Part shown: positions 13,909 through 14,513 of the stretch, in pieces
Numbering within the stretch: the first letter of the stretch is position 1
Layout: every line of letters begins with the position of its first letter
Assembly: GCA_951406725.2 (NCBI GenBank)
Contig: OX597832.1
Location: 60,698,001 to 60,762,000 of the forward strand
Origin: Octopus vulgaris
Lineage: Eukaryota
Reading direction: 5' to 3'
Length of the DNA stretch: 64,000 nucleotides
Position numbers and translations under genes: made by a program
Notes under the pieces: generated by a model
Told to the model about the DNA's origin: nothing
The model's input: the letters and a program-made list of their open reading frames with translations, nothing else
Database searches by the model: none

Positions 13909-14285
13909 CAGATGTATAAGTGTATTGATAATTTTCTATTTGAGAGTTTTTTGCCATTTTTACTCATAAGATCCCATGTTTTTGGTCCATGTTGCTTGTT
14001 GTTGAGCCCCAACTTATCTCCGAGTAAACCTATGGTCAAAATAATGCTATCTTTGACCATCATGAATGTATGTAGGACTACATTATCCAATGTCTCTTTC
14101 CTGTTTTCCAAGATAGTTTGGGCTGTTTGATCCAACTTGTTGCACATGTGTGGACATTTTACATATATATATAAGCAAAAATAAATCTCTGAGTGAGGTA
14201 TACACTTTTTCGATATCAGTGTCTTTACGTCACTGGAAAAAAGTATATTTATTAGCAGAGGAAAGCCTACTTTTCATTGACAGTC

Positions 14286-14344
14286 ATGATTGTCACACGC
14301 TGATGACGGGTCAATACCCAGAAACTCGAGTCCGTGTGTATCAT
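14286..14344 (+). ncRNA. Minimal type-I hammerhead ribozyme, near canonical
   Basis: Stem I CACACG(14294-99)/CGTGTG(14333-38), extended by ATGAT/ATCAT; core CTGATGA (14300-06); stem II C-GGGT-caat-ACCC-A; GAAA (14321-24); stem III AC-TCGA-GT with palindromic loop; GTC triplet, predicted cleavage after 14332. Confidence 0.8.
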
Positions 14345-14513
14345 AAGTTGAAGACGGGAAGGATGGCTTCCCTTTGCAAATACTGATAAGGCACAGAAAG
14401 TGTGTCTATAGCCAGCTGGAGGAGGTGTCCTCCTGGGGCTACAAGCTACAGTAGCATCCACCCTTAGGGGTTAGCCATATTTAAATGGCAAATATACTTC
14501 ACTATAGATATAT

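Follow-up and report, generated by a model that had tools for sequence, protein, structure and literature searches.

The window analysed here, a 64,000-nucleotide stretch of the Octopus vulgaris genome (contig OX597832.1, positions 60,698,001 to 60,762,000), harbors at positions 14198-14505 an old copy, truncated at its 5' end, of a non-coding 353-nt repeat that is probably a non-LTR retrozyme, for which hammerhead cleavage is predicted and which Penelope-like enzymes likely copy into (TA)n-rich sites. About 5,000 3' segments of this repeat are present in the genome.

The window copy is a plus-strand monomer that begins at unit position 48/52, extends to position 353 and belongs to a subfamily termed W; it has a GC content of 0.43 and differs from the W majority at 14 of 297 positions (about 5%) and from the majority of the youngest subfamily (Y) at 39. 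While the first-pass annotation had delimited a unit at 14170-14505 bounded by TA runs, the forward copy covers only about 14198-14505, and the preceding segment (14174-14202, minus strand) derives, in inverted orientation, from the 3' tail of the element itself (about unit 18-47; 26-nt match, 96%, to copy L053). This Penelope-type 5' inversion accounts for the apparent terminal inverted repeat of the copy. Target-side flanks are a (TA)5 run on the left (14164-14173) and a (TA)n run on the right (14503-14548). From 5' to 3', the copy comprises a candidate internal promoter of snRNA type (14215-14275), a LINE target site that is empty here and occupied in other copies (14274-14296), a type I hammerhead (14286-14344), and a structured 3' part (14345-14505) that, judged from folds and from 3'-end counts across the family, runs to the family's fixed 3' end. 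The 336-nt stretch of the original annotation folds well (z -5.8). As a lone truncated monomer, the copy in the window can probably no longer propagate. Elsewhere in the window, 40741-43910 contains (AT)n/(ATAC)n microsatellite tracts of great length (about 1.8 and 0.9 kb).

The hammerhead core at 14300-14332 is real, and all named parts of the motif sit where they had been placed, at 14286-14344 on the plus strand. Stem I pairs 14294-14299 with 14333-14338 and is extended by pairing of 14286-14290 with 14340-14344, CUGAUGA occupies 14300-14306, stem II (GGGU/ACCC) is formed by 14308-14311 and 14316-14319, and GAAA (14321-14324) is followed by a 2-bp stem III overlapping an 8-nt palindrome (14324-14331) that would provide the dimer form of this stem. 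The core elements CUGANGA, GAAA and NUH are thus present in type I order, and the hammerhead consensus predicts cleavage after GUC, between 14332 and 14333. The label "minimal" given in the first-pass annotation does not fit, as a 6-bp stem I, a stem II of 4-5 bp and a 2-bp stem III with palindromic tetraloop constitute a canonical metazoan type I hammerhead. A scan requiring the stems returned 14286-14344 as the single hammerhead-like match in the window, with no strict match in 100 block shuffles. A loose core pattern was uninformative in the window, with five matches compared to a shuffled mean of 3.6, i.e. at chance level. Outside the motif-scan matches, 14594-14630 carries CUGAUGA followed by a stem-like stretch without GAAA. 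The covariance-model search proposed earlier gave a negative answer for the window copy, as the Rfam scan returned no hammerhead match even at E<=10. Beside the core, the base pair 10.1-11.1 is replaced by C.A (14307 and 14320), which opens stem II; a C10.1.A11.1 mismatch would exclude the motif under a published filter (PMC3088659).

Comparison of the window stretch with the genome yielded 2,836 first-look candidates, and a 3' 20-mer matched 5,094 genomic sites with at most one mismatch (control, 0). Of the outcomes that would have spoken against the first-pass annotation, the missing covariance-model match applies to the window copy, but the sequence is multicopy with a conserved core and so neither single-copy nor core-less. 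Copy number, arrays and Penelope-type insertions support its proposal that the element is a single monomer from a family of retroelements bearing a ribozyme, here a non-autonomous one. Segments closer than 50-80 nt to a locus edge were excluded from the end counts; of the 406 non-redundant segments counted, 324 stop at unit 349-353, while their 5' ends are scattered. A sample of 48 insertions, drawn from a single contig in genome order, included 22 with an inverted piece, 25 with a tail consisting of the next unit's first 35-62 nt, and 29 adjoining a (TA)n run (background, 0.105). The same structure has been described for insertions of Penelope-like elements (PLEs; PMC8557442). Copies are also joined head to tail: nine cores are spaced 352 nt apart at one locus (L238, contig C2), and in subfamily Y many arrays of two to five units at 353-nt spacing carry the ribozyme in each unit. 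The nine near-identical units at L238 differ by about 8% from copy L006 and may possibly reflect local expansion after insertion. Unit-to-unit differences in Y amount to 0.56% within arrays (27 pairs) and 1.5% between loci (501 pairs). No ATG frame starts within the first units of a Y trimer, the only two starting at the trimer edges. In sum, the unit combines a non-coding length within 150-450 nt, GC below 50%, a type I hammerhead, tandem copies and strong self-pairing, as is typical of non-LTR retrozymes, which would in addition be expressed as unit-length RNA in linear and circular form. A search for RNA records containing the unit listed none. Contigs from four runs (three guessed to be RNA, one of unknown type; organism labels A, B and D) cover the unit, and two of the guessed-RNA runs have Y-type letters, although contigs of such tandem stretches cannot show strand, level or circles.

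The hallmarks of Penelope-mediated mobilization, namely a fixed 3' end, 5' truncation, an inverted 5' copy, a tail and a bias for microsatellites, are all found in the family, and the genome contains intact frames of 781 aa that combine reverse transcriptase (RT) and GIY-YIG domains. When the unit was compared by BLAST with some 50 of the 150 GIY-YIG loci listed, no autonomous element sharing sequence with it was found. In the reverse direction, the proteins of three PLEs and the sequences of two were compared with the retrozyme loci, and only separate neighbours matched. The adjacency of a PLE and a retrozyme at L198 was considered as a clean template switch and rejected, since a TA run separates the two. 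5' ends did not pile up at the predicted cut (4 in the cut bin compared to 7 and 5 in the adjoining bins), which fits a circle and equally fits no cutting. Likewise, array homogeneity together with 5' ends that do not stop at the cut fits a circular template, as well as local duplication or uncut multimers. Several PLEs carry hammerhead-like motifs of their own: at L068, L070, L071, L074, L079 and L085, on the 3' side of GIY-YIG frames, elements of the 781-aa group have a motif with a U3-A8 core variant and a CAUG palindrome, and a 574-aa family has CCGAAGA or CUGAAGA with GUAC. More such motifs, unrelated in sequence, occur near GIY-YIG loci (L065, L144, L072, L143, L145), and these unrelated motifs suggest further ribozyme-bearing families.

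The retrozyme copies fall into six subfamilies, whose states at the base of stem II form a ladder from C.A via C.U and U.U to the canonical G-C of the youngest. O and W carry C.A, W2 carries C.A and mostly U4C, W3 carries C.U and mostly U4C, T has U.U or A-U together with a second pair that is now A-U, and Y shows G-C in 44 of 45 units and a canonical core. In O, the oldest subfamily, the base of stem II is C.A in 27 of 30 copies, U-A in three and C-G in none; W, to which the window copy belongs, has C.A in 33 of 36. Among the first 100 of 237 core matches from window-like subfamilies, a G occurred at this place only once. The C-A opposition had been explained as CpG decay of an original C-G pair; this reading is rejected because C.A is the state of the subfamily and not decay in the window copy. 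In a tree built without the ribozyme columns and rooted on a single O copy, W2 and then W3/T/Y were nested inside W (support 95 and 100), and Y was sister to two U.U copies. Pairwise divergence was 10% in W and 1.9% in Y, values that are biased low because W and Y were sampled by exact core patterns and O by best hits. Y comprises 445 exact cores in the genome. It scored 32.2 bits with Rfam Hammerhead_1 (RF00163) in three of three copies, below the gathering cut-off of 34, whereas the O, T and W3 copies tested gave no Rfam hammerhead match. Hammerheads are weakened by a mismatch at 10.1-11.1, and U4C, as carried by W2 and W3, reduces their activity in vitro, yet a viroid hammerhead with U4C suffices in vivo (PMC3088659), and in axolotl retrozymes a stem II based on U.U still cleaves (PMC7229834). 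With C.A, the ribozyme probably had low activity that was nevertheless enough, and later subfamilies shifted to G-C. One composite (L311) joins a Y-like 5' retrozyme part to a T-like 3' part, i.e. a recombination or template switch between subfamilies.

Stems I, II and III are supported across relatives, with 93.5% of cells paired in 42 natural sequences compared to 17-58% in slid controls. Two-sided changes were seen in four pairs among the 42 sequences, a number also reached by 74 of 500 shuffles in a test that is weakened because the sequences are related. Across the six subfamily majorities, one of 12 core places varies compared to 96 of 353 places overall (27%), a difference that is not significant alone. 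The stem III palindrome went through two changes in O and is still palindromic there, being exact in 15 of 30 copies. Circular folds of the unit were more stable than 30 shuffles each (z -4.0 to -8.4). Counting against the favored reading, the hammerhead fold of the monomer makes up only about 1e-5 of the ensemble in W as well as in Y. The suggestion in the first-pass annotation that the palindrome suits cleavage as a dimer gains support from a self-duplex energy of -10.7 kcal/mol and from the conserved palindromy in O. Dimer cleavage of PLE hammerheads was reportedly described by Lunse in 2017. The combination of a rare monomer fold with a palindrome resembles hammerheads that work as dimers (PMC4209133).

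Several retrozyme copies are interrupted after unit 141-144, and two Tx1-like LINE families have their insertion site immediately upstream of the ribozyme, at a distance of 50-60 nt from the predicted cut. Family A is 5.3 kb long and encodes a zinc knuckle (zf-CCHC) in ORF1 and an AP endonuclease, RT and zf-RVT in ORF2 (1146-aa frame in L318); from this domain order, we provisionally take it to belong to the Tx1 clade. Of its exact 3' ends in the genome, 20 of 21 run on into the target. Among the best 30 loci, 19 continue into a retrozyme, one continues into duplicated target and a second LINE, and 10 do neither, seven of the latter representing a 91% sister family in another target. This sister family (L270-L276) resides in a different repeated target and is clustered on two contigs; an Rfam search around 10 loci of off-target and sister copies revealed no RNA gene. 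Eleven of 20 fetched loci hold a full-length or nearly full-length family A copy between unit 139-144 and unit 122-134, flanked by a target duplication of about 20 nt (about unit 122-144). Family A thus exceeds the share of over 20% of copies in a single, duplicated target by which LINEs are called target-specific. Family B, known from a 1.7-kb copy whose sole frame is ORF1-like and has no Pfam match, shows the target within 25 nt in 26 of 30 cases (background, 6 of 750) and also occurs as tandem re-insertions. The Tx1 clade is known to include LINEs specific for transposons and for U2 genes (PMC4494074), while no LINE targeting a retrozyme was found in the literature listings searched.

The LINE target adjoins a likely internal snRNA-type promoter, a sequence-based assignment that rests on comparison with octopus U2 genes. 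ATYAGT is located 57-61 nt before +1 in all 28 U2 genes without a LINE at this place. It occurs once per retrozyme unit, at position 66 (ATCAGT at 14215 in the window; ATCAGC in Y), which predicts +1 at unit 123-127 (near 14276 in the window), adjoining the family A junction at unit 122. The promoter is graded likely rather than established because the local alignment to U2 upstream regions was marginal: five of 100 shuffles reached the score of the window, random genomic stretches scored as high, and across copies the score was reached by 5-9 of 100 shuffles in five copies and by 51 in one. An anchored weight matrix of U2 upstream regions gave no significant promoter match in the unit. Newt satellite 2, with its snRNA-type promoter, provides a precedent (PMC2220036, citing Coats 1994). 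In two of 30 U2 genes (L403, L410), an 83% relative of family A (ORF2) lies directly before +1. In addition, a 57-nt inverted retrozyme fragment (unit 290-346) is present about 1.1 kb upstream of the U2 genes of one array (L414, L422-L425).

Other accounts of the repeat differ in what moves it and in whether its ribozyme matters. The paired ends of the window copy and its flanking TA runs would be expected from a MITE or another short DNA transposon that is bounded by terminal inverted repeats and inserts at TA, in which the hammerhead is coincidental, but the left end is the inverted own-tail piece, other copies have variable 5' and fixed 3' ends, and the youngest copies match Rfam Hammerhead_1; we give this account next to no credence, and variable 5' truncation together with head-to-tail arrays rule it out. 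It appears improbable that the unit is a solo pseudo-LTR, or what a deletion left of a complete Penelope element, and not a retrozyme that forms circles in its own right. Its end structures are the same as those of PLEs, and a 2026 preprint derives animal retrozymes from pseudo-LTRs (10.64898/2026.07.22.740005); against this, PLE coding matches at retrozyme-bearing loci are separate neighbours only, the unit is joined head to tail with itself in arrays of up to nine, and the hammerheads of the PLE families examined are unrelated in sequence. A somewhat stronger competitor, although still an unlikely one, grants mobilization by Penelope and holds that the hammerhead is a mere passenger, dead in the C.A and U4C subfamilies including that of the window, so that uncut tandem transcripts spread and only the youngest subfamily cuts. 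The mismatch beside the core in O, W, W2, W3 and most T copies, the absence of Rfam matches for the window, O, T and W3 copies, the missing pile-up of 5' ends at the cut and the spread of Naiad PLEs without canonical hammerheads (PMC8557442) are all in line with such a passenger. Yet the palindrome and stem I changed in a compensating manner between O and W, both of which are C.A, and such changes require selection on the fold; moreover, the axolotl ribozyme with U.U and the viroid hammerhead with U4C cited above (PMC7229834; PMC3088659) function nonetheless.

The link to the LINEs could be hitchhiking alone, i.e. a single landing in one retrozyme and subsequent amplification of the composite, which we consider very unlikely. 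Consistent with it, eight family A hosts form their own clade without a LINE-free member in the sample, and inverted duplicates of the LINE-retrozyme composite occur at L308 and L322. In contrast, the other hosts belong to Y, T, W3, W and older subfamilies, which argues for repeated insertion, and the duplicated target carries subfamily-specific letters at both ends. Furthermore, two different LINE families share the site, and tandem re-insertions at L321, L331 and L334 are separated by duplicated target. Because of the eight-host clade and the two loci with inverted duplicates, composites were probably also copied as units, in addition to repeated insertion.

Under the favored reading of the repeat as a Penelope-mobilized retrozyme, tandem source copies would be transcribed from the internal snRNA-type promoter, starting near unit 124. 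Two hammerheads would then pair via their palindromes and cut, thereby releasing a cut-to-cut monomer that would contain the whole unit including the promoter. This monomer is probably closed into a circle, as retrozyme circularization has been demonstrated in mussel, coral and axolotl (PMC7229834). A Penelope RT/GIY-YIG protein would finally reverse-transcribe the RNA from a fixed point, yielding 0.1 to several units.

With the non-LTR retrozymes of mussel, coral and axolotl and with newt satellite 2, the octopus family shares a unit length near 350 nt, a single type I hammerhead, tandem copies, GC below 50%, strong self-pairing and a short stem III with palindromic loop (PMC7229834; PMC2220036), and in axolotl HHR_Amex2 a U.U mismatch occupies the base of stem II, as in the octopus ladder (PMC7229834). 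Compared to those retrozymes as described there, the octopus family, known here from DNA, is largely made up of truncated monomers at scattered sites, in which inversions and tails of Penelope type are clear, and displays C.A in old subfamilies and a ladder to G-C (PMC7229834). The minimal hammerheads of PLE pseudo-LTRs likewise combine type I order, a dimer palindrome and Penelope-type insertions, and they have an unpaired base after A9, as do the octopus C.A subfamilies; whereas their stems I and II comprise 4-5 and 7-8 bp, those of the octopus comprise 6 bp plus extension and 4-5 bp, and unlike the pseudo-LTRs, the octopus unit contains no ORF and showed no sequence link to a PLE in the loci searched (PMC4209133). 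EN+ PLEs of the Neptune/Naiad type resemble the octopus insertions in 5' truncation, partial tandems, inverted 5' copy, terminal tail and (TA)n bias, but the octopus unit is non-coding and its tail measures 42-55 nt instead of 30-40 nt (PMC8557442). Family A in turn resembles Tx1L in Tx1D, Keno in U2 and Tx1-Mar in its ORF1 zinc knuckle and its ORF2 with AP endonuclease, RT and zf-RVT, and shares with target-specific Tx1 LINEs one fixed site in a multicopy element and tandem re-insertion; unlike the Tx1 LINEs described there, it inserts into a retroelement that carries a ribozyme, immediately upstream of the hammerhead (PMC4494074). No cephalopod retrozyme was found in the literature searched, the main text of a 2026 octopus repeat paper contains neither "ribozyme" nor "hammerhead" (PMC13282606), and supplements or Repbase entries may already contain the family. 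The octopus retrozyme is thus a known kind of element, apparently noted here for the first time in a cephalopod.

The octopus insertions bear the Penelope signature directly, whereas the literature consulted argues for this link from co-occurrence and phylogeny. Unusual are the natural series of ribozyme variants and the targeting of a ribozyme-bearing retroelement by LINEs at one nucleotide. The six ordered natural subfamilies offer a ready series for testing how important ribozyme activity is for spread. Tentatively, and as one possibility among others, we propose a three-tier parasite system, in which a Penelope-driven circular RNA element would have tuned its hammerhead stepwise (C.A to C.U to U.U to G-C), and LINEs would home to its snRNA-type start site and ride its copying as a 6-kb composite. 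If so, the LINEs would acquire an upstream promoter as well as a ribozyme cleavage site 50-60 nt beyond their 3' end, and may in this way borrow the promoter, the ribozyme and the mobility of the retrozyme.
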